Shown: positions 42,721-53,356 of the stretch, piece by piece | Numbering within the stretch: the first letter of the stretch is position 1 | How the letters are laid out: each line of letters starts with the position of its first letter | Assembly (NCBI GenBank): GCA_035063765.1 | Contig: JAPSFT010000010.1 | Coordinates: 9,660 to 73,659 of the forward strand | Length of the DNA: 64,000 nt | Direction of reading: 5' to 3' | DNA from: Deltaproteobacteria bacterium | GTDB lineage: Bacteria; Myxococcota_A; UBA9160; PR03 | Made by a program: the position numbers and the translations under genes | The notes under the pieces: generated by a model | The model's database searches: none | What the model saw: only the letters and a program-made list of their open reading frames with translations | Told to the model about the DNA's origin: nothing

Positions 42721-45123
42721 ATGGTTCGCACCTACACCGATCCGCGGCGAGAGACACCCGAGGGCACCGCGCTCTCGGCGGACGAGCTGCGCAGGACGGA
42801 CGCGTACTGGCGCGCCTGCAACTACCTCGCCGCCGGGATGATCTACCTGCGCGACAACCCCCTGCTGCGCGAGCCCCTCCAGCGCGAGCACATCAAGCAG
42901 CGCCTGCTCGGCCACTGGGGGGCGAGCCCGGGCCTCTCCTTCGCCTACGTGCACCTGAACCGGCTGATCCGCAAGTACGACCTCGACGCGATCTTCCTGG
43001 CCGGCCCGGGGCACGGCGCGCCCGGCGTCCTCGCGCCCGTCTACCTCGAGGGGACCTACTCGGAGGTGTTCCCGAACAAGAGCGAGGACCTGGACGGGAT
43101 GCGGGCCTTCCTCGAGGAGTTCTCGTTCCCGGGCGGGATCGGCAGCCACTGCACCCCGGAGACGCCCGGCTCGATCCACGAGGGCGGCGAGCTCGGCTAC
43201 TCGGTGTCGCACGCGTTCGGGGCGGCCTTCGACAACCCCGATCTGCTCGTCGCGGTGGTGGTCGGCGACGGCGAGGCCGAGACCGGGCCGCTGGCCACCT
43301 CGTGGCACTCGACCAAGTTCCTGAACCCGATCCGCGACGGCGCGGTGCTCCCGATCCTCCACCTGAACGGCTACAAGATCAACAACCCGACCCTGCTCGC
43401 CCGCATCTCCCACGACGAGCTGGAGAGCCTGTTCCGGGGCTACGGCTGGAGCCCGCGCTTCGTCGAGGGCCACGAGCCCGAGCGCATGCACCAGGCGATG
43501 GCGGCGACCCTCGAGGAGTGCGTGCTCGAGATCCGCCGCATCCAGGAGGAGGCGCGCGCGAGCGGCAGGGCGCTGCGGGCCCGCTGGCCGATGATCGTGC
43601 TGCGCAGCCCGAAGGGGTGGACCGGCCCGAAGGAGGTGGACGGTCACAAGGTCGAGGGCTCCTGGCGCGCGCACCAGGTCCCGCTCGCAGGCGTCCGGGA
43701 GAACCCCGCGCACTTGAAGCAGCTCGAGGAGTGGCTGCGCAGCTACCGGCCCGAGGAGCTCTTCGACGCGAGCGGGCGGCTGGTCGCCGAGCTGCGCGCG
43801 CTGGCGCCGGCCGGGCGCCGGCGCATGAGCGCCAACCCGCACGCCAACGGCGGCCTGCTGCGCAAGGCGCTGCGCATGCCCGACTTCCGCGACTACGCGA
43901 TCGAGCTCGAGGCGCCCGGCCAGGTGACGGCGGAGAACACCCGCCCGCTCGGGCGCCTGCTGCGCGACGTGATGCGCTCGAACCCGGACACCTTCCGGGT
44001 CTTCGGGCCCGACGAGAACACCTCGAACAAGCTCGACGCGATCTACGAGGTGAGCAAGAAGCTCTGGCTCGCCGACTCCCTGCCCGAGGACGCCGACGGC
44101 GGCGAGCTGGCGCCCGACGGGCGCGTCCTCGAGATGCTCTCCGAGCACACCCTCGAGGGCTGGCTCGAGGGCTACCTGCTGACCGGCCGCCACGGCTTCC
44201 TCTCGACCTACGAGGCCTTCGCCCACGTCATCGACTCGATGTTCAACCAGCACGCGAAGTGGCTCGCCGCCTCGCGCGAGCAGCCGTGGCGCGCGCCGGT
44301 GTCGTCGCTGAACCTGCTGATCACCTCGACGGTCTGGCGCCAGGACCACAACGGCTTCACGCACCAGGACCCGGGCTTCCTCGACGTGGTCGTGAACAAG
44401 AGCCCCGACGTGTGCCGGATCTACCTGCCGCCCGACGTGAACACGCTGCTGTGCATCGCCGACCGCTGCCTGCGCAGCACGAACGAGATCAACGTCATCG
44501 TCGCCGACAAGCAGAAGCACCTCCAGTACATGACGATGGACGAGGCCATCGTGCACTGCGCCAAGGGCGTCAGCATCTGGCGCCAGGCGAGCAACGACGA
44601 GGGCGAGGAGCCCGACGTCGTGATGGCGTGCGCGGGCGACATCCCGACCAAGGAGGCGCTGGCGGCGGTGGTGCTGCTCCGGGAGCACTTCCCCGCGCTC
44701 AAGATCCGCTTCGTCAACGTGGTGGACCTCTACAAGCTGACGCCTTCCAGCGAGCACCCGCACGGCCTCGCGGACCGCGACTTCGACAGCCTCTTCACCG
44801 TGGACCGGCCGATCATCTTCAACTTCCACGGCTATCCCTGGCTGATCCACCGGCTCGCCTACCGGCGCACCAACCACCGGAACCTGCACGTCCGCGGCTA
44901 CAAGGAGAAGGGCAGCATCAACACGCCCCTCGACCTCGCGATCCAGAACCAGATCGACCGCTTCAGCCTCGCGATCGACGTGATCGACCGCGTGCCCGGG
45001 CTCCGGGTCGCCGGCGCGCACGCCAAGGAGGCGCTGCGCAGCATGCAGATCGAATGCCAGAGCTACGCCTACGAGTGGGGCGTCGACAAGCCCGAGCTCG
45101 ACGGGTGGCGGTGGCCCTCCTGA
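42721..45123 (+). CDS. xfp: Xylulose-5-phosphate/fructose-6-phosphate phosphoketolase
   Basis: [75 protein letters not shown]; GGAGGAG RBS. Confidence 0.97.
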
Positions 45124-45189: not shown

Positions 45190-46896
45190 ATGGAAGGCCG
45201 CCGGATCCCGCTCGATCGACTCACCTGGCAGCGCTGGCGCCGCGCGACCTGGAGGTTCGTCAGGTCGGAGGTCGGGGGGCGGGCCCGGGCCCTGTTCCTG
45301 GCGCTCCTCGCGCTGTTGGTCGCGATCAACGGCCTGAACGTGGTGAACAGCTACGTCGGCCGCGACTTCATGACCGCGATCGAGGCGCGCAGCAAGTCGG
45401 GCTTCCTGTTCGAGGCCCTGCTCTACGTCGGCGTCTTCGCGGCGTCCACGGTGGCCGCGGTGATCTACAGCTTCTGCGAGCAGCGGCTGGGCCTGCTGTG
45501 GCGCGCCTGGCTCACGCGGGGGCTGATCGAGCGCTACCTGCACGACGACACCTACTACTGGCTGCGCGAGCACGACGAGCTTCCGAATCCGGACCAGCGG
45601 ATCGCCGAGGACGTCCGGACCTTCACGGCCACCACGCTCTCGCTCCTGCTGATCCTGCTCAACGCGACCTTCACGATCGTCGCCTTCTCCGGCGTCCTGT
45701 GGTCGATCAGCCCGCTGCTCTTCGGCACGGCGGTGGCGTACGCCGCGCTCGGCTCGGGGCTCACGGTCCTGTTCGGGAGGCCCCTGATCTGGCTCAACTA
45801 CCAGCAGTCCGACCGCGAGGCGGACCTGCGCGCGAGCCTCGTCCACGTGCGCGAGAACGCCGAGTCGGTGGCGCTCCTGCACCGCGAGGGCCGGCTCGGC
45901 GCGCGCCTGGGGAAGCGGGTCGACGCGCTGGTCGCCAACACGAGGCGGATCATCGCGGTGAACCGCAACCTCGGCTTCTTCACGACGGGCTACAACTACC
46001 TGATCCAGATCATCCCGGTCCTGATCGTGGCGCCGCTCTTCATCGGGGGACACGTCGAGTTCGGGGTGATCACCCAGTCCTCGATGGCCTTCTCGACCCT
46101 GATCGGCGCCTTCTCGCTGATCGTCACGCAGTTCCAGCAGATCTCGTCGTACGCCGTCGTGCTGGCGCGCCTCGGGGTCTTCGCCGAGAGCGTCGAGGAG
46201 GTGGCCGCCGACGGCGCCCGGGGCATCGTGCACGACGACGGCGGGGACGGGATCGCCTGGCAGGAGCTCACGCTGCGCTCGCCGCACGACGGGACGGTGC
46301 TGCTCGCCGGGCTGTCGGCCTCGGTGCGCTCCGGCACCCGCGTGCTCGTCACGGGGCCGAACGAGGCCGCGCGCTTCGCCCTGTTCCGGGCGACGGCCAG
46401 GCTCTGGAACGCGGGCGAGGGGCGCATCGTGCGGCCGCCGCCGGGCACGATCCTGTTCGTGCCCGAGCGGCCCTATCTGCCGCCGGGAACCCTGCGCGAG
46501 GCGCTGGTGCAGACCGGGCAGGAGCAGGCGATCTCCGACGCGCGCATCGCCGAGGTGCTGCGGGCGCTCGGGGTCGACGGGGTGTTCGCCCGGAGCGGAG
46601 GGCTCGACGCCGAGCAGGACTGGGACGACCTGCTGTCGCTCGGCGAGCAGCAGCTCCTCGGCTTCGCGAGGATCGTGCTGGCGAAGCCGCGCTTCGCGGT
46701 CCTCGATCGCCCCGCGACCCTGCTGCCGCGCGAGCTCGTGGAGCGTACCTGCGCGCTGCTCGCGGAGTCGGCGATCACCGTCGTCACCTTCGAGCGCGAC
46801 GCGGCGCTCGCCGCGCACCACGATGCCCAGCTCGAGATCGGCGAGGGCGGCCGCTGGGTCTGGCGGCCCCTCGCCCAGGCGAGCCGCAGCGCATGA
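45190..46896 (+). CDS. BacA/YddA (ABCD-like) half-transporter with catalytically degenerate nucleotide-binding domain
   Basis: TMD motifs WRAWLT, NPDQRIAEDV, READLR, RENAESVA, GFFTTGYNY; NBD retains LSLGEQQ but has GPNEAARF (Walker A), PERPYLP (Q-loop), AVLDRP (Walker B) and VTFERD (H-loop). Confidence 0.88.
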   Translation: MEGRRIPLDRLTWQRWRRATWRFVRSEVGGRARALFLALLALLVAINGLNVVNSYVGRDFMTAIEARSKSGFLFEALLYVGVFAASTVAAVIYSFCEQRLGLLWRAWLTRGLIERYLHDDTYYWLREHDELPNPDQRIAEDVRTFTATTLSLLLILLNATFTIVAFSGVLWSISPLLFGTAVAYAALGSGLTVLFGRPLIWLNYQQSDREADLRASLVHVRENAESVALLHREGRLGARLGKRVDALVANTRRIIAVNRNLGFFTTGYNYLIQIIPVLIVAPLFIGGHVEFGVITQSSMAFSTLIGAFSLIVTQFQQISSYAVVLARLGVFAESVEEVAADGARGIVHDDGGDGIAWQELTLRSPHDGTVLLAGLSASVRSGTRVLVTGPNEAARFALFRATARLWNAGEGRIVRPPPGTILFVPERPYLPPGTLREALVQTGQEQAISDARIAEVLRALGVDGVFARSGGLDAEQDWDDLLSLGEQQLLGFARIVLAKPRFAVLDRPATLLPRELVERTCALLAESAITVVTFERDAALAAHHDAQLEIGEGGRWVWRPLAQASRSA

Positions 46897-49800
46897 GCAC
46901 GCCCGGCCCGGTCCGGATCGCGAGCCCCTCCGGGCTCGTGGCGGAGGTCCACGCGAACGGCTCGCTCCGGCGCATCGACCACCGCGACGTGATCGTGAAC
47001 CTGTTCCCCGGCAACGCGCTCGAGGGCGGGCCCGCGAACCTGTTCCTGCGCCGCCGGGACGAGGCCGGTGCCTGGACGCCGCTCCTCGGGCCCCGCAGCC
47101 CCGGCCGGGTCCGGCTCGACGAGCGCGGGCTCGAGGTCACGGGCGAGTGGTCGGGCCTGCGCTTCCGGGTGGCGCTCGTGCTCGCCGGGTCGGCGCCGGC
47201 CTGGTTCTGGCACGTGGCGCTCGAGAACGCGGGAGCCACGGTGGCGACGATCGACCTCGTGCACGTGCAGGATCTGGCGCTCGCGGACTACGGGGCCGTG
47301 CGGCTCAACGAGTACTACGTGAGCCAGTACGTCGACTACACGCCGCTCGACCACCCCGGGCACGGCGTGGTCCTGGCGGTGCGGCAGAACCTCGCGATCG
47401 GGGGGCGCCACCCCTGGCTCGTGACCGGCTCGCTGGCCCGGGCGGCGAGCTTCTGCACGGACGCGATCCAGCTCCACGGTCTCTCGACCCGCGCAGGGGA
47501 CGCGCCGGCAGCTCTCGCCGGCGCCGGCCTTCCGGGCGTGCGCCACCAGCACGAGCACTCGCTCGCGGGGATCCAGGACGAGCCGCTGCGCCTCGCCCCC
47601 GGCGCGCGCGCGACGCTCGGCTTCTTCGCCTGGCTCGAGCCGGACCACCCGGACGCGAGCTCGGCCGGCGATCTCGCGTTCGCCGACCGCGCGCTGGCGC
47701 TCCCGGAGGCCGCGCCCCCCGGCGAGCGCACGGCACCCTCCGCCGCGCCACCCGCCGTCACCCTCTTCAGCGAGCAGCCCGTGCTCGCGGTGCACGACCT
47801 CGAGCCTGCCGCGCTCGCCGCCCGTTGCGGGAGCGAGCGCCGTGCGGTCGAGGAGGACGGCGGCCGCCTGCTGTCGTTCTTCACGGGCGGCGGCGCGCAC
47901 GTCGTCCTGCCGGCCAAGGAGCGCGCGAGCCTGCGCCCGCACGGGCAGATCCTGCGCACCGGCGAGCGGCTCGAGCCCGACGAGGCCTCGCTCACGACCA
48001 CGGTCTGGATGGGCGGCGTCTTCCACTCCATGGTGACGCAGGGCCACGTCAGCATCGGACGCCTGCTCTCGACGACCCACTCGTACCTCGGCCTGTTCCG
48101 CTCGCACGGACAACGGATCTTCGTCGACGCGGGCGAGGGCTGGCGGCTGCTCGGGGTGCCGTCGGCCTTCGCGATGACCCCGAGCAGCGCCACCTGGTGG
48201 TACCAGCACGCGGCGGGCCTGCTCGAGGTCCGGAGCTGGGCGCCGACCGACCGCCACGAGCTGTGGCTGGCCGCACGCGTCCTGGCGGGATCCCCCTGCC
48301 GCTTCCTGGTCTCCCACCACCTCGCGGTGAACGGCGACGACGGCGCCGACGCCGTCGCCGCGCGCTGGACGCGCGACGCGCAGGGCGTGGCGATCGCCCT
48401 GCTGCCGGACACGGACCTCGGCCGCCGTTTCCCTGGTGGTGGCTTCCGCATCGACCCGACACCGGACACGCCGATCGATCGCATCGGCGGCGACGAGCTG
48501 CTCTTCGCCGACGGCCGCTCGCGTGGACAGCCCTTCCTCACGCTGGTGACGGCGCCGGCCGCGTCCCTGGCCCTGCGCATCACCGGGCAGCTCGTGATGC
48601 CGGTGCCGCCCGGAGCGGTCGAGGAGCGCCACGCGGCCGACGCGGCGCAGGCCGGGCGCTTCTGGCGCGACCTGACGGGCGGGCTCACGCTCGAGGCGCC
48701 GGCGCCCGCCGAGAGCGAGCGGCTCGAAGCCGTCCTGCCCTGGCTCGCGCACGACGCGTGGATCCACCACCTGGCTCCCCGTGGCCTCGAGCAGTACTCG
48801 GGCGGGGGCTGGGGCACGCGCGACGTGTGCCAGGGGCCCGTCGAGCTGCTGCTCGGGCTCGGGCGCGTGGAGCCGGTGCGCGCGCTGCTCCGCACCGTCT
48901 TCCGCAACCAGGACCCGGACGGCGACTGGCCGCAGTGGTTCATGTTCTTCGAGCGCGAGCGCTCGATCCGCCCCGGGGACTCGCACGGCGACATCGTCTT
49001 CTGGCCGCTCCTGGCGCTCGCCAGGTACCTGCTGGCCTCGGAGGACGCGGCGCTGCTCGACGAGGAGCTGCCCTTCTTCCACCCGGAGGGGGAGGCCCGC
49101 GCCGAGCGCGCGACCCTGCTCGGCCACGTCGAGCGCGCGCTCGCGCTGATCGAGCGGCGCGTGATCCCGGGCACGCGGCTCGCGGCCTACGGTCACGGCG
49201 ACTGGAACGACTCGCTCCAGCCGGCCGATCCCGCGCTCGCCGAGCAGCTCTGCAGCGCCTGGACGGTGACGCTCCACCACCAGACCCTCGCCACCCTCGC
49301 CGAGGCGCTGCGCAGCGTGGACCGGAGTGCGCTCGCCGCCCCGCTCGAGGCCTCCCTCGGCCCGATCCGCGACGACTTCCAGCGGCTCCTGGTCGCGGAC
49401 GGGGTCGTCGCCGGCTTCGCGCGCTTCCGCCCCGACGGGGCCGTCGAGCACTGGATCCACCCGCGCGACCGGGAGGGCGACGTCCACTACAGCCTGCTCC
49501 CGATGGTCCACGCGATCCTGGCCGGGCTCTTCACCCCCGAGCAGGCAGCCCGACACGGAGCGGTGATCCGCCGCCACCTGCTCGCCGCCGACGGCGCGCG
49601 GCTCTTCGACCGGCCGTTCCCGTACCGGGGCGGCACCCAGCGCCGCTTCCAGCGCGCCGAGACCAGCACCTTCTTCGGCCGCGAGATCGGCATCATGTAC
49701 ACGCATGCGCACCTGCGCTACGCGGAGGCGATGGCGCACCTGGGCGACGCCGAGGCCTTCCACCTCGCGCTGCGTCAGGCCCTGTCCGCCGGCCTGCGCG

Positions 49801-50276
49801 AGGTCGTGCCGAGCGCGCGGCTGCGCCAGGCCAACTGCTACACGTCGAGCTCGGACGCGGACTTCCCCGATCGCTACGCCGCCTCGGCGGGCTACGACGC
49901 GGTCCGGACCGGCGCCGTGGCCGTCGAAGGGGGCTGGCGGGTGTACTCGAGCGGCGCCGGGATCGCGGTGAGCCTGCTCCGCCAGCGCCTCCTCGGCCTG
50001 CGCCTGCGGCGCTCCGGGGTGGTCTTCGATCCCGTACTCGCGCGGGCGCTCGACGGGCTGTGCGCGGGCGTCGAGCTCTTCGGGCAGTCCGTGCGCGTGC
50101 GCTATCAGGTGGGCGCGCGCGGCTACGGGCCGGTGCGGCTCACCTGGAACGGATCTCCACTTCGCTTCGCACGGGAAGCCAATCCCTACCGCGAGGGCGG
50201 CGCCGTCGTCGCCGCCGAGGAGCTGCGCGAGCGCCTGCGGAGCGGAGCCGGCGAGCTCACGATCGAGCTCGGATGA
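46893..50276 (+). CDS. GH94 glycoside phosphorylase, 1,2-beta-oligoglucan phosphorylase-like
   Basis: GLEQYSGGGWGTRDVCQGP, SHGDIVFWPL, YGHGDWNDSLQP (GH94 catalytic motif), EIGIMYTHAHLRY, QANCYTSSSD, GWRVYSSG; about 1127 aa; no signal peptide; ATGA overlap with the transporter. Confidence 0.85.
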   Translation: MSTPGPVRIASPSGLVAEVHANGSLRRIDHRDVIVNLFPGNALEGGPANLFLRRRDEAGAWTPLLGPRSPGRVRLDERGLEVTGEWSGLRFRVALVLAGSAPAWFWHVALENAGATVATIDLVHVQDLALADYGAVRLNEYYVSQYVDYTPLDHPGHGVVLAVRQNLAIGGRHPWLVTGSLARAASFCTDAIQLHGLSTRAGDAPAALAGAGLPGVRHQHEHSLAGIQDEPLRLAPGARATLGFFAWLEPDHPDASSAGDLAFADRALALPEAAPPGERTAPSAAPPAVTLFSEQPVLAVHDLEPAALAARCGSERRAVEEDGGRLLSFFTGGGAHVVLPAKERASLRPHGQILRTGERLEPDEASLTTTVWMGGVFHSMVTQGHVSIGRLLSTTHSYLGLFRSHGQRIFVDAGEGWRLLGVPSAFAMTPSSATWWYQHAAGLLEVRSWAPTDRHELWLAARVLAGSPCRFLVSHHLAVNGDDGADAVAARWTRDAQGVAIALLPDTDLGRRFPGGGFRIDPTPDTPIDRIGGDELLFADGRSRGQPFLTLVTAPAASLALRITGQLVMPVPPGAVEERHAADAAQAGRFWRDLTGGLTLEAPAPAESERLEAVLPWLAHDAWIHHLAPRGLEQYSGGGWGTRDVCQGPVELLLGLGRVEPVRALLRTVFRNQDPDGDWPQWFMFFERERSIRPGDSHGDIVFWPLLALARYLLASEDAALLDEELPFFHPEGEARAERATLLGHVERALALIERRVIPGTRLAAYGHGDWNDSLQPADPALAEQLCSAWTVTLHHQTLATLAEALRSVDRSALAAPLEASLGPIRDDFQRLLVADGVVAGFARFRPDGAVEHWIHPRDREGDVHYSLLPMVHAILAGLFTPEQAARHGAVIRRHLLAADGARLFDRPFPYRGGTQRRFQRAETSTFFGREIGIMYTHAHLRYAEAMAHLGDAEAFHLALRQALSAGLREVVPSARLRQANCYTSSSDADFPDRYAASAGYDAVRTGAVAVEGGWRVYSSGAGIAVSLLRQRLLGLRLRRSGVVFDPVLARALDGLCAGVELFGQSVRVRYQVGARGYGPVRLTWNGSPLRFAREANPYREGGAVVAAEELRERLRSGAGELTIELG

Positions 50277-53200
50277 CGGACGCGCTCCTCGACGACTTCC
50301 GCGACGTCTCCGCGTGGAGCGCCGTGGCCTCGGGCGAGGCGCAGCTCGCGATCACGAGCGGCGCGGGCCCGGACGGCGGCGCGGCGATGCGCCTCGACTA
50401 CGACTTCCGCGGCGGCGGCGGCTTCGTCGTGGCACGCAGGAGCCTTCCGCTCGCGCTGCCGAGCGCGTGGGCGCTCGCCCTGCGCGTGCGCGGCGCCGCG
50501 CCGGCCAACAAGCTCGAGATCAAGCTCGCCGATCCCAGCAACCGCAACGTCTGGTGGTGGCACCGGGACGCCTTCGAGCTCCCCGCCGAGTGGACGCCGC
50601 TGCGCATCCGCAGCAGCGAGGTCGCGTTTGCCTGGGGACCTGCGGGCGGGGGGGTGCTGCGCGAGCTCGGCGCGCTCGAGATCGCGATCGCCGCCGGGCC
50701 GGGCGGCCGCGGATCGCTCTGGATCGCCGACCTGCGCTTCGAGGACCGCTCGCTCGCCGGGCCGCCGCGCGCGACGGCTTCGAGTGCCGCACCCGGCCGC
50801 GATCCGGAGTGCGCGCTCGCCGCCGGGGGAAGCGGCTGGCGCAGCGCGCCCGGCGCCGGCGGCACGCAGTGGCTCGCGCTCGACTTCGGCCGCGAGCACG
50901 AGTACGGCGGGCTCGTGGTGGACTGGGCCGAGGAGGGTGCCCCGCGTGCCTTCGAGGTGCAGGCGTCCGGCGACGGCGCCTCCTGGGCGACGCTCTGGTC
51001 GGCGCGCCAGGCGGAGGGCGAGCGCAGCTACGTGTACCTGCCGGGCGGCTCCTCGCGCCATCTGCGGCTCCACCTGCTCGAGCCCGCCGCGGGCGCCGGC
51101 GGCTTCGCGATCCGCTCCCTCGAGGTGCAGCCCTTCGAGTTCTCCCGCTCGCTCGCCGAGTTCTTCCATGCCGTCGCGGCCCGCGAGCCGCGCGGCCGGC
51201 ATCCGCGCTGGCTGCACCGCGAGCAGTCGTACTGGACGCCGGCCGGGGTCGCCGGCGGGACGACGGCGGCGATCCTGAACGAGGAGGGCCTGCTCGAGCC
51301 CGACCGCGGCAGCTTCACGCTCGAGCCCTTCCTGTTCGCCGGGGGCACGCTCGGCACCTGGGCGGACGCGGCGATCGACCTCACCCTGGCGCGGGGCTGG
51401 CTGCCGATCCCGTCGGTGACCTGGCGCTGGCGCGGCTGGTCGCTCGAGACGACGGCCTTCGCGGTGGCGGAAGCCTCCGGCGCCGCGGCGCGCGTGCGCT
51501 ACCGGCTCGTGAACGAGGCGGCGGACACGCCGCGGGTGCGGCTCTTCGTGGCGCTGCGACCGTTCCAGGTCTCGCCGCCCTGGCAGTCGTTCCAGGGGAT
51601 CGGCGGGACGGCGCCGATCCGCACGCTCGCGTGGCGCGACGGGGCCGTCGAGGTGGACGGCATCGCGCGCGTGTGGCCGCTCGGGACACCCACGGGCTTC
51701 GGCGCCGCGGCCTTCGAGCAGGGCGGCGTCCTGCGCGCGCTCGCGCGCGGCGAGCTGCCCGCGCGCGCGGAGGTCGCCGACCCCTTCGCGCACGCCTCCG
51801 GCGCGCTGCTCTTCGAGCTCGAGCTCGCGCCGGGCGCGGCGGGCGAGATCGAGCTCGCGGTGCCCTTCGTCGAGCGCGAGCCGCTCGGGCCGGTGGCGCT
51901 CGGGTCGGAGCCCGCCGGCACGCTGCGGGAGGTCACGGAGGCCTGGGGCGAGGCCCTCGGGCGCGTCCGGATCGCGCTGGCCGCCGACGCGGGCTGCGTG
52001 GACGCGCTGCGCACCGCCGCCGGCCACGTGCTGGCGGTGCGCGACGGCCCGGCGCTCCAGCCCGGCCCGCGCCGCTACACCCGCTCGTGGATCCGCGACG
52101 GCGCCACCATGTCGGCTGCGCTGCTGCGGATCGGCTGCGCCGGCCCGGTGCGCGACTTCCTCGCGTGGTACGCGCCGCACCAGGCCGCGGACGGCAACGT
52201 CCCCTGCGCGGTGGACCGCAGCGGTCCCGACTGGCTGCCCGAGCACGACAGCCACGGCCAGCTCGTGTTCACGCTCGTCGAGTACGCCCGCTTCACCGGC
52301 GATCTCGCGTTCGCGCGCCGCCTGTGGCCTGCGGCGCAGCGGGCGGTCGCCTACCTCGAGGGGCTGCGGGCGCAGCGCTGCACGCCGGAGTACCGGGCGC
52401 CCGAGCAGCGGGCCCGCTTCGGGATCCTGCCGGAGTCCGCGAGCCACGAGGGCTATCTCGCGCAGCCGGTCCACTCCTACTGGGACGACTTCTGGGCCCT
52501 GCGCGGGATCGGTGACGCGGCCGACCTCGCGCGCGCGCTCGGCGAGGAGGCGGAAGCCCTCCGGCTCGCAGCGCTGCGCGATGCGCTGCACGCGTCGCTC
52601 TACGCCTCGATCGAGGCGACGATCGAGGAGCGCGGCCTCGCCTACGTCCCCGGCTCGGTCGAATGGGCCGACTTCGACCCGGCCGCCACGGCCACCGCGC
52701 TCACGACCACCGACGCCGCCGAGCGCCTGCCGCCGGGCGTGCTGGCCGCCACCTACGACGAGTACCTGGCCGGCCTGCGCCGCCGGCGCCGCGGCGAGAT
52801 CGAGTGGAACAACTACAGCGCCTACGAGATCCGCATCCTGGGGGCGCTCGTCCGGCTCGGCCGGCGCGCCGACGCGCACGAGCTGCTCGCCTTCTTCCTC
52901 GGCGACCGCCGCCCCCGCGCCTGGAACCAGTGGCCCGAGATCTCCTGGCGCGACCCGAGAAGCCCCGGCCACCTGGGCGACGTCCCCCATGCCTGGATCG
53001 GCGCCGAGTACGTGCTGGCCCTGCTCGCGATGTTCGCCTACGAGCGCCCCGCGGACGGCGCGCTGGTCGTCGCCGCCGGCGTCTCGGACGCCTGGCTCGA
53101 CGCCGGCGAGGTGGCGGTTGCGGGCCTGCCCACCTGGTGGGGATCCCTGTCCTACACGCTGCGGCGGAGCGGGCCGGGCGCCCTGCGCCTCGAGCTCGGC

Positions 53201-53356
53201 CCCGGCCTGCGCCCACCGCCGGGCGGCATCGTGGTGCGGCCGCCGCTCGCGCGCCCGCTCGCGCGCGTCACCGTGGACGGCGCGCCGGTCCCGGACGTTG
53301 GCGGAGACACGCTCACCCTGCGGCGCACGCCGGCGATCGTCTCGATGGAGTCGTGA
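50273..53356 (+). CDS. Uncharacterised glycoside hydrolase: CBM11/CIA30-like + discoidin (F5/8C) + beta-sandwich + (alpha/alpha)6 barrel
   Basis: LDDF..MRLDYDF N-terminal module; ATASS..WRS..QWLALDFG..FEVQASGDG discoidin; LQPGPRRYTRSWIRDG, EHDSHGQ, SYWDDFWALRG, WNQWPE, GDVPHAW; ATGA overlap with the GH94 gene; no signal peptide. Confidence 0.8.
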   Translation: MTDALLDDFRDVSAWSAVASGEAQLAITSGAGPDGGAAMRLDYDFRGGGGFVVARRSLPLALPSAWALALRVRGAAPANKLEIKLADPSNRNVWWWHRDAFELPAEWTPLRIRSSEVAFAWGPAGGGVLRELGALEIAIAAGPGGRGSLWIADLRFEDRSLAGPPRATASSAAPGRDPECALAAGGSGWRSAPGAGGTQWLALDFGREHEYGGLVVDWAEEGAPRAFEVQASGDGASWATLWSARQAEGERSYVYLPGGSSRHLRLHLLEPAAGAGGFAIRSLEVQPFEFSRSLAEFFHAVAAREPRGRHPRWLHREQSYWTPAGVAGGTTAAILNEEGLLEPDRGSFTLEPFLFAGGTLGTWADAAIDLTLARGWLPIPSVTWRWRGWSLETTAFAVAEASGAAARVRYRLVNEAADTPRVRLFVALRPFQVSPPWQSFQGIGGTAPIRTLAWRDGAVEVDGIARVWPLGTPTGFGAAAFEQGGVLRALARGELPARAEVADPFAHASGALLFELELAPGAAGEIELAVPFVEREPLGPVALGSEPAGTLREVTEAWGEALGRVRIALAADAGCVDALRTAAGHVLAVRDGPALQPGPRRYTRSWIRDGATMSAALLRIGCAGPVRDFLAWYAPHQAADGNVPCAVDRSGPDWLPEHDSHGQLVFTLVEYARFTGDLAFARRLWPAAQRAVAYLEGLRAQRCTPEYRAPEQRARFGILPESASHEGYLAQPVHSYWDDFWALRGIGDAADLARALGEEAEALRLAALRDALHASLYASIEATIEERGLAYVPGSVEWADFDPAATATALTTTDAAERLPPGVLAATYDEYLAGLRRRRRGEIEWNNYSAYEIRILGALVRLGRRADAHELLAFFLGDRRPRAWNQWPEISWRDPRSPGHLGDVPHAWIGAEYVLALLAMFAYERPADGALVVAAGVSDAWLDAGEVAVAGLPTWWGSLSYTLRRSGPGALRLELGPGLRPPPGGIVVRPPLARPLARVTVDGAPVPDVGGDTLTLRRTPAIVSMES

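Follow-up and report, generated by a model that had tools for sequence, protein, structure and literature searches.

The window analysed here, a 64,000-nucleotide stretch from a Deltaproteobacteria bacterium (NCBI GenBank assembly GCA_035063765.1, contig JAPSFT010000010.1, positions 9,660 to 73,659), contains a gene for an ABCD/YddA-type half-transporter of the ATP-binding cassette (ABC) superfamily whose nucleotide-binding domain (NBD), judging from its sequence, lacks the residues for ATP hydrolysis. The protein was found to belong to a large clade that spans several phyla and is under selection, made up of single-polypeptide ABC exporter-fold proteins whose two ATP sites would both necessarily be dead. 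With moderate confidence, we take it to be an importer of beta-glucan oligomers, probably beta-1,2-linked, that works independently of ATP hydrolysis by facilitated diffusion and metabolic trapping. ABC transporters are usually defined as being driven by ATP binding and hydrolysis, and to our knowledge the known degenerate ABC sites are always paired with a working site. No published description was found of the clade, or of any homodimeric ABC exporter-fold protein with two dead sites. A 2020 review on degenerate sites covers only transporters that keep one active site, and in a 2025 survey of SbmA/BacA-like proteins the word 'degenerate' does not occur, the ATPase domain coming up only as a difference between BclA and SbmA/BacA.

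Loss and conservation of the ATP-site motifs

The gene, its two domains and the motif stretches of the NBD are located as follows:

45190..46896, + strand: ABCD/YddA-type half-transporter with a predicted catalytically dead NBD, 568 amino acids; its stop codon overlaps the ATG of the next gene (ATGA)
45277..46209, + strand: transmembrane domain (TMD), residues 30-340; six long helices, type IV ABC fold
46222..46869, + strand: NBD fold, residues 345-560; AlphaFold2 (AF2) pLDDT >90; under purifying selection
46354..46377, + strand: degenerate Walker A GPNEAARF, residues 389-396; family pattern G-x-[ND]-[ED]-[ATS]-[AP]-[KR]-hydrophobic
46462..46476, + strand: Q-loop PERPY, from residue 425; Gln replaced by Glu, with Glu in 79/87 relatives
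46633..46653, + strand: ABC signature LSLGEQQ, from residue 482; intact, with S483 in 85/87, E486 in 87/87 and Q487 in 86/87 relatives
46696..46713, + strand: Walker B AVLDRP; catalytic Glu replaced by Arg507 (nucleotide 46708), with Arg or His in 85/87 relatives
46783..46800, + strand: H-loop position VTFERD, residue 532; without His

The open reading frame (ORF) is open throughout its 568 codons, and its ATG is the start used by homologues too. The Pfam domain ABC_membrane_2 (PF06472) covers residues 30-284 (E=2e-42), while SbmA_BacA is a weaker match (6e-11) and ABC_tran a marginal one (26.0 bits, cut-off 25). The best NCBIfam model is that of the peroxisomal ABCD family, far under its trusted cut-off, and the top sequence matches in the PDB are ABCD1 and Rv1819c. 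The AF2 model, built with 81 homologues as input, has a mean pLDDT of 79, which exceeds 90 in the NBD; it shows six long helices with their cytoplasmic extensions kept, and its best Foldseek matches are ABCD3, Rv1819c, ABCD1 and ABCD4.

Residue-by-residue alignment to plant ABCD1 (9wfu) and Rv1819c (6tqe) places the motif stretches at the positions of the canonical motifs. Walker A reads GPNEAARF where the canonical motif is GPNGSGKS, the Q-loop PERPY for PQRPY, Walker B LDRP for LDE(C/A) and the H-loop TFERD for ISHRP; the signature LSLGEQQ is identical to the canonical one. The original prediction had reported these strings together with an intact frame, and had claimed that every catalytic motif of the NBD except the signature was lost; the strings and the frame were found in place, and the alignment confirms the loss. 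The ABC-transporter Walker A pattern GxxGxGK[ST] is thus replaced by GPNEAARF, with GK[ST] in 0/87 relatives, and the catalytic Glu, the Q-loop Gln and the H-loop His, all three of which are present in 40/40 intact relatives, give way to R507, E426 and a position without His. By the evidence of these motifs the NBD is without the residues for ATP hydrolysis, and canonical ATP binding has very probably been lost as well.

The relatives were collected by a family pattern scan of one genome per species, which returned 564 loci, and the gene was extracted from 87 of them. These loci span Pseudomonadota (Methylococcales, Chromatiales and others), Verrucomicrobiota, Acidobacteriota, Myxococcota, Thermodesulfobacteriota, Methylomirabilota, Rokubacteria and Binatia, so that at least eight phyla are represented among the 87 genome-derived relatives carrying the same ATP-site substitutions. 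GK[ST] and D-E are both absent from all 87. Position 392 of the P-loop is acidic in 76, position 395, that of the Walker A lysine, is K or R in 82, the Mg-binding Ser/Thr of Walker A is mostly replaced by a hydrophobic residue, and Ala or Pro takes the place of the glycine preceding the Lys. The 120 closest proteins (64-83% identity) show the same picture, with E392 in 108/120, E426 in 119/120, R507 in 102/120, P508 in 119/120 and no H-loop His in any of them.

A set of 40 fully intact relatives was used for comparison. Fifteen residues conserved in that set are lost from the family (S391, G392, G394, S396, S397, Q426, R489, E507, T509, D513, E517, Y521, H536, R537 and H544), and they sit in or beside the ATP-site motifs; the scaffold residues are common to the family and the intact relatives. 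The median ratio of nonsynonymous to synonymous substitution rates (dN/dS; Nei-Gojobori, 86 pairs with unsaturated dS) comes to 0.096 in the NBD; in the TMD, which is the most conserved part of the protein (mean top-residue frequency 0.74), it is 0.079. Since the NBD is about as constrained as the TMD, it has a function, and by this measure it is not the 'vestigial' domain that had been proposed. The conservation of the degenerate motifs under purifying selection, suggested earlier as a check, was confirmed in the 87 relatives. Simple decay, which would have counted against the prediction, was not seen, given 0/87 relatives with GK[ST] or D-E; with the frame intact, the substitutions conserved in relatives and dN/dS near 0.1, decay into a pseudogene is ruled out.

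Changes are also seen on the side of the TMD. Residue R232 (nucleotides 45883-45885) lies in the TM4-TM5 loop, in the region of coupling helix 2; this position is Gly in 38/40 intact relatives and Arg in 93% of a 40-member sample of the family. Together with the charge reversals E97 and D208, R232 adds to the picture of a probably remodelled TMD-NBD interface.

Partner subunits and evolutionary placement

A dead Walker A, Walker B and H-loop beside a live signature is the look of the inactive half of a heterodimeric exporter, and a partner is therefore the main rival to be considered. A second PF06472 gene was not found in the organism's own assembly (4.4 Mb, 96% complete), which holds only the one. 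Its six other exporter genes, of the PF00664 type, are found on other contigs and are members of a different subfamily. No other NBD gene was found within 20 kb of the transporter, the window's only other ABC ATPase being 23 kb off, and the 83 family loci showed neither a second family copy nor a conserved NBD gene within 8 kb. Where genomes carry several family paralogues, all copies are degenerate. A partner half-transporter with an intact NBD, which would have spoken against the original prediction, was thus not found in the genome, near the gene or as a tandem paralogue. Tandem or fused partners were sought among the long representatives and rejected, as P0150, P0159, P0164 and P0199 turned out to be standard full-length ABCD proteins in which both halves are intact; a Pfam scan of eight long representatives revealed no glycosidase domain. 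These sequences are most simply read as a homodimer with two dead sites.

For the phylogeny, one representative was taken per 50%-identity cluster (1,621 clusters at E<1e-30), and trees were built from TMD columns only to avoid circularity with the NBD motifs. The TMD tree places 33 representatives, each without one or more of the catalytic motifs, in a single clade (SH-aLRT 99), next to a fully intact sister, P0144. On the outer branches of the degenerate clade, Walker A and the Q-loop are kept while the catalytic Glu and the His are gone; within an inner clade of 14 (support 98), which includes the window protein, every catalytic motif is gone and sometimes a lone Lys is left. This looks like a stepwise loss in which residues for hydrolysis would have disappeared first and residues for binding later.

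These data bear on the idea that the protein still depends on a nucleotide, either because ATP or another phosphorylated ligand (e.g. glucose 1-phosphate) acts as a non-hydrolysed gating or regulatory ligand, as at the degenerate site of CFTR, or because another ABC subunit supplies the active site. The K or R at position 395 in 82/87 relatives, the full Walker A and Q-loop on the outer branches and the presence of two to three family paralogues in some genomes would agree with it, as does the combination of a degenerate Walker A, Walker B and H-loop with an intact signature, known from the 'dead' half of heterodimeric ABC exporters (PMC7756269). TM287/288, TmrAB, TAP, CFTR and ABCC1 resemble the window protein in having lost the catalytic Glu and the H-loop His and kept the signature at that site. 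However, a second, consensus site hydrolyses ATP in those exporters and the degenerate site binds ATP tightly, whereas here two identical dead sites are expected and Walker A is degenerate too. As GK[ST] and D-E are missing in 87/87 relatives, the paralogues cannot supply an active site; the own genome offers a single PF06472 gene and six PF00664 genes of a different subfamily, and no conserved adjacent ABC gene was found. The acidic P-loop residue (76/87), the Ala or Pro for the glycine before the Lys and the hydrophobic residue for the Mg-binding Ser/Thr also argue against nucleotide dependence, which we regard as very unlikely.

A second alternative is that of a proton-coupled secondary transporter, an ABC fold converted to the proton motive force as in SbmA/BacA, with the dead NBD as a scaffold only. 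That this TMD fold can run on protons is shown by SbmA, for which an origin from a YddA-like ABC transporter through loss of the NBD has been proposed (PMC13316013). The window protein shares with the SbmA/BacA proteins (SLiPT, proton-driven peptide importers) a related TMD fold and, as predicted, the absence of ATP hydrolysis, and its family has charge-reversed residues of its own, E97, D208, R232 and R239, in the cytoplasmic helix extensions. SbmA, however, has neither NBD nor coupling helices, whereas the full NBD (residues 345-560) and the cytoplasmic helix extensions with the coupling helices are kept here. The six-glutamate ladder of E. coli SbmA (E193, E203, E269, E276, E287 and E378; PMC13316013) maps to E140, L150, N203, E210, R221 and S320. 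Only two of the six positions, E140 and E210, are glutamates, and ATP-competent relatives have the same two, so that the SbmA-like acidic gate suggested for the protein was not borne out. No conserved Asp or Glu was found in the predicted transmembrane (TM) segments, whose boundaries were estimated from AF2 helices and hydrophobicity. Their conserved residues are N, Q, S, T, Y and W, among which N47, N50, N53, N158, Y184, Y268, N269, Q273, Q296, Q314 and Q316 are invariant; such polar uncharged residues would fit a pathway for neutral carbohydrate better than a proton relay.

In the TMD-only tree, E. coli SbmA and YddA group together with ExsE of Sinorhizobium meliloti (SH-aLRT 98), apart from the degenerate clade (99), although SbmA forms a long branch and its exact position is uncertain. 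Because this group stands elsewhere in the tree, the degenerate clade is, on the phylogenetic evidence, a parallel case and not a stage on the SbmA lineage, contrary to the earlier proposal of an intermediate towards SbmA. Taken together, proton coupling appears unlikely. The earlier idea of an SbmA-like intermediate thus has partial support only: the loss of the ATP-site residues holds, whereas the vestigial NBD, the SbmA lineage and the acidic gate do not.

Glucan genes beside the transporter

The genes next to the transporter were not linked to it in the original prediction, and they give its likely substrate and direction. Three of them concern us here:

42721..45123, + strand: phosphoketolase, 66 nucleotides upstream of the transporter and on the same strand
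46893..50276, + strand: SOGP-type phosphorylase of glycoside hydrolase family 94 (GH94), 1127 amino acids, with SOGP_N, SOGP_2nd and SOGP_4th domains; PDB match 5h3z
50273..53356, + strand: 'GH15L', a predicted cytoplasmic, uncharacterised protein of 1027 amino acids with an N-terminal beta-sandwich, a discoidin/CBM32 domain, a supersandwich and an (alpha/alpha)6 barrel

Overlapping start and stop codons (ATGA) join the transporter to the SOGP homologue and the latter to GH15L. The SOGP homologue matches the Lachnoclostridium 1,2-beta-oligoglucan phosphorylase (LpSOGP, 5h3z) over its full length (residues 30-1109, E=1.8e-174), and the operon thus contains the SOGP-type GH94 phosphorylase typical of beta-1,2-glucan loci. 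Neither enzyme has a predicted signal peptide, and the 31 GH15L homologues that were extracted all start without one. The AF2 model of GH15L (pLDDT 87.7) gave Foldseek matches to GH15, GH94, GH116, GH142-like and exo-arabinanase-type enzymes and to the cyclic glucan synthase Cgs (8rf0), and its sole sequence match in the PDB is the CBM32 domain. An assignment to a CAZy family was attempted and abandoned, as these matches reflect a generic supersandwich and (alpha/alpha)6 architecture with no clear winner. The GH15L family (about 1030 amino acids) occurs in at least six phyla, nearly always in genomes with an ABCD-like transporter, and is a candidate new glycoside hydrolase or phosphorylase family. 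A scan for promoters and terminators gave nothing useful.

Neighbourhoods were counted within 8 kb at 83-84 family loci, with the following results:

GH15L: 32-34 loci, the most frequent neighbour of the transporter family
large GH94 phosphorylase: 14 loci
GH1 beta-glucosidase: about 13 loci
OpgG: 6 loci
SOGP: 5-6 loci
at least one of these five glucan genes: 45/84 loci, in six phyla

The value of 45/84 compares with 2/75 at loci of intact ABCD-like relatives (p=1e-13), a negative control drawn from a scan aimed at the partly degenerate outer branches that returned mostly intact cyanobacterial and verrucomicrobial relatives. At the level of genomes, an ABCD-like homologue is present in 13/13 genomes with GH15L and in 4/48 without it (p=4e-10; 61 related genomes). 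The two control loci that do carry glucan genes, L115 from a Thermodesulfobacteriota metagenome-assembled genome (MAG) and L151 from a Luteolibacter MAG, encode fully intact transporters (KQEH) beside GH15L, L115 also beside SOGP and GH1. Both are grouped with P0144 in the starred 40-row group that also contains the degenerate clade, and they count among the intact relatives closest to it. Since these transporters are intact, glucan-linked and close to the degenerate clade, the linkage is probably older than the motif loss, and both would be useful as ATP-competent comparators.

The organism's genome contains a second glucan module outside the window, on its contig C9 (locus L109, 3327-14680). 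It consists, in order, of an SBP_bac_1 substrate-binding protein gene, a BPD_transp_1 permease ORF, a GH15L paralogue (44% identical; L109:6416-9643), a large GH94 phosphorylase (L109:9646-13473) and a convergent gene for a MalK-type ATPase. The substrate-binding protein, permease and ATPase are parts of a classical ATP-driven sugar importer. With a paralogous GH15L and GH94 pair beside these importer genes, the ABCD-type protein would, by analogy, fill the importer slot in the window operon. The Listeria innocua lin1839 cluster and the Chloroflexus Chy400_4166 system likewise combine a cytoplasmic SOGP with an uptake system, and contain beta-glucosidases (PMC3960220, PMC13731917). Those loci use importers dependent on a substrate-binding protein, with active MalK-type ATPases, whereas the window operon has an ABCD-type protein with a dead NBD and GH15L, of predicted enzyme fold.

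Export in the opposite direction was also considered, with the transporter as an NdvA/ChvA analogue for cytoplasmic linear or cyclic beta-1,2-glucan, SOGP working in the direction of synthesis and the (alpha/alpha)6 enzyme serving as transglycosylase or cyclase, in the manner of a split Cgs. Cgs itself has both a GH94 and an (alpha/alpha)6 cyclisation domain, and what it makes leaves the cell through an ABC exporter (PMC11842490). Cgs is among the Foldseek matches of GH15L, OpgG is found nearby in Chromatiaceae loci, and the contig with the genome's other large GH94 gene shows no PF00664-type (NdvA-like) exporter gene. However, the operon lacks a glycosyltransferase (GT84/GT2), neighbouring genes are catabolic (GH1 beta-glucosidase, phosphoketolase, 'glucoamylase family protein'), the paralogous GH15L and GH94 pair stands beside genes for a substrate-binding protein, a permease and a MalK-type ATPase, and uphill export without an energy source is hard to explain. 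We therefore consider an exporter quite improbable.

Among the Chromatiaceae (Thiocapsa, Thioalkalicoccus), loci L058, L059, L063, L076 and L098 share a conserved cluster in which the genes for OpgG, GH94 phosphorylase and GH15L are divergent from those for the transporter and a GH1 beta-glucosidase; genes for glycogen synthase and amylase follow, and the cluster is present in cultured strains suited to genetics. The phosphoketolase recurs near transporter relatives of distant taxa at L022, L025, L103 and L111, that is, in Methylomirabilota, in Myxococcales, on plasmid p3 of Rhizobium binae (L103) and in G004, a genome of the same taxonomic family whose transporter is of a second lineage. On the Rhizobium plasmid, the transporter adjoins a 'glucoamylase family protein' and the phosphoketolase. 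This recurrence hints at a route from glucan via sugar phosphate to acetyl-phosphate.

Proposed uptake without ATP hydrolysis and a second GH15L-linked lineage

Our preferred reading is that a homodimeric ABCD/YddA-type transporter in the inner membrane carries neutral beta-glucan oligomers from the periplasm into the cytoplasm, where the co-translated SOGP-type phosphorylase and GH15L would degrade them and the resulting glucose phosphates would feed towards the adjacent phosphoketolase. The NBD would no longer hydrolyse ATP, and probably no longer bind it, and would be kept as a structural part of an alternating-access machine, as the socket of the coupling helices, a dimer interface and possibly a docking surface. 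The driving force for net uptake would be the substrate gradient, sustained by phosphorolysis and hydrolysis in the cytoplasm. From the single copy we infer the homodimer, and from the operon and the enriched glucan genes the substrate. The import direction is favoured because the enzymes lack signal peptides, importer genes lie at L109 and the characterised relatives of the fold, Rv1819c, BclA and SbmA, are importers (PMC10960864, PMC12003926).

The closest well-studied counterparts are Rv1819c (mycobacterial BacA, 6tqe) and Bradyrhizobium BclA, ATP-driven ABCD-like importers of cobalamin, bleomycin and peptides. The window protein resembles Rv1819c in its TMD-NBD half-transporter architecture and fold (phmmer E=6.7e-55, residues 15-564; Foldseek rank 2), and we count the large hydrophilic cargo of Rv1819c and BclA as a further likeness. 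Both have intact Walker A and B, Q-loop and H-loop and require ATP hydrolysis (PMC10960864, PMC12003926), whereas all four motifs are replaced here and the context is one of glucan enzymes, not of cobalamin or peptide functions.

Several observations weigh against uptake as proposed. The Walker A lysine position is still K or R in 82/87 relatives and the signature, which normally contacts ATP across the dimer, is nearly invariant; non-canonical binding of a nucleotide or phosphate ligand may therefore still occur. Within 8 kb, roughly half of the family loci are without a glucan gene. The own genome has genes for an OpgG homologue and for another large GH94 protein as well, so that export or turnover of self-made glucan is possible. 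The suggested beta-1,2 specificity rests on the homology of one neighbour to LpSOGP, and GH15L is without a characterised relative.

The linkage to GH15L across phyla, in two lineages, is strong, and the NBD surface is conserved without its catalytic residues. Both would also suit a protein that is no longer a transporter and instead serves as a membrane anchor, sensor or scaffold recruiting GH15L and the phosphorylase to the membrane. The TMD is, however, the most conserved part (0.74; dN/dS 0.079), and the invariant polar residues along the predicted TM helices fit a maintained translocation pathway; a pure scaffold is in our view highly improbable.

The second lineage was found in G004, where locus L111 (G004:C119:1-12355) conserves the operon with phosphoketolase followed by transporter, SOGP and GH15L, the enzymes being 63-64% identical to those of the window. 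Its transporter is of a different ABCD-like lineage (31% identical), with the Walker A K replaced by R and no H-loop His; this swap is a paralogous displacement. In the GH15L-adjacent transporters of G059, G058 and G021, the catalytic Glu has given way to K, D and K, respectively. The four form a clade of their own (99), whose sister is partly degenerate and whose next sister is intact; the sample is small and the trees are quick-search trees. This lineage lies near ExsE (support 71) and far from the window protein's clade. On the sequences at hand, two GH15L-linked ABCD-like lineages have thus lost catalytic residues.

A more radical extension of the uptake reading is an enzyme-driven ratchet, in which GH15L and GH94 docked on the dead NBDs would replace ATP as the motor and processive phosphorolysis or hydrolysis of the emerging chain would rectify diffusion, hydrolysis-independent GH15L-linked transport having arisen twice. 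The two origins are suggested because two unrelated GH15L-adjacent ABCD-like lineages have both lost catalytic residues, each with an intact sister. We consider this extension doubtful and on balance unlikely; if true, it would document how a primary pump can become an enzyme-coupled facilitator, in parallel with the origin of SbmA but separately from it.

Irrespective of the ratchet, the series from intact proteins through those without hydrolysis residues to those without binding residues, with the same trend in the second lineage tied to GH15L, makes it testable how a primary active transporter turns into a secondary or passive one, a question raised by the 2026 work on SbmA. Two further leads are an undescribed uptake route for beta-glucan oligomers and GH15L, an uncharacterised glycoside-hydrolase-like family. 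Culturable carriers include Methylococcus capsulatus, Thiocapsa, Chromatium and Rhizobium binae.

With regard to ExsE, a homologue in the exo/exs region of S. meliloti 1021 (L105, pSymB 1162057-1163637) is presumably ExsE itself. It is likewise an ABCD-like half-transporter with a partly degenerate NBD, a feature not mentioned in the literature examined; its Q-loop reads PRAPY, its signature LGDDEQR and the H-loop His is missing. Membership of the window protein in an ExsE class was rejected, as the two are 29% identical and ExsE lies outside its clade, nearer to the second GH15L-linked lineage. Unlike the window protein, ExsE keeps GK[T] and D-E.

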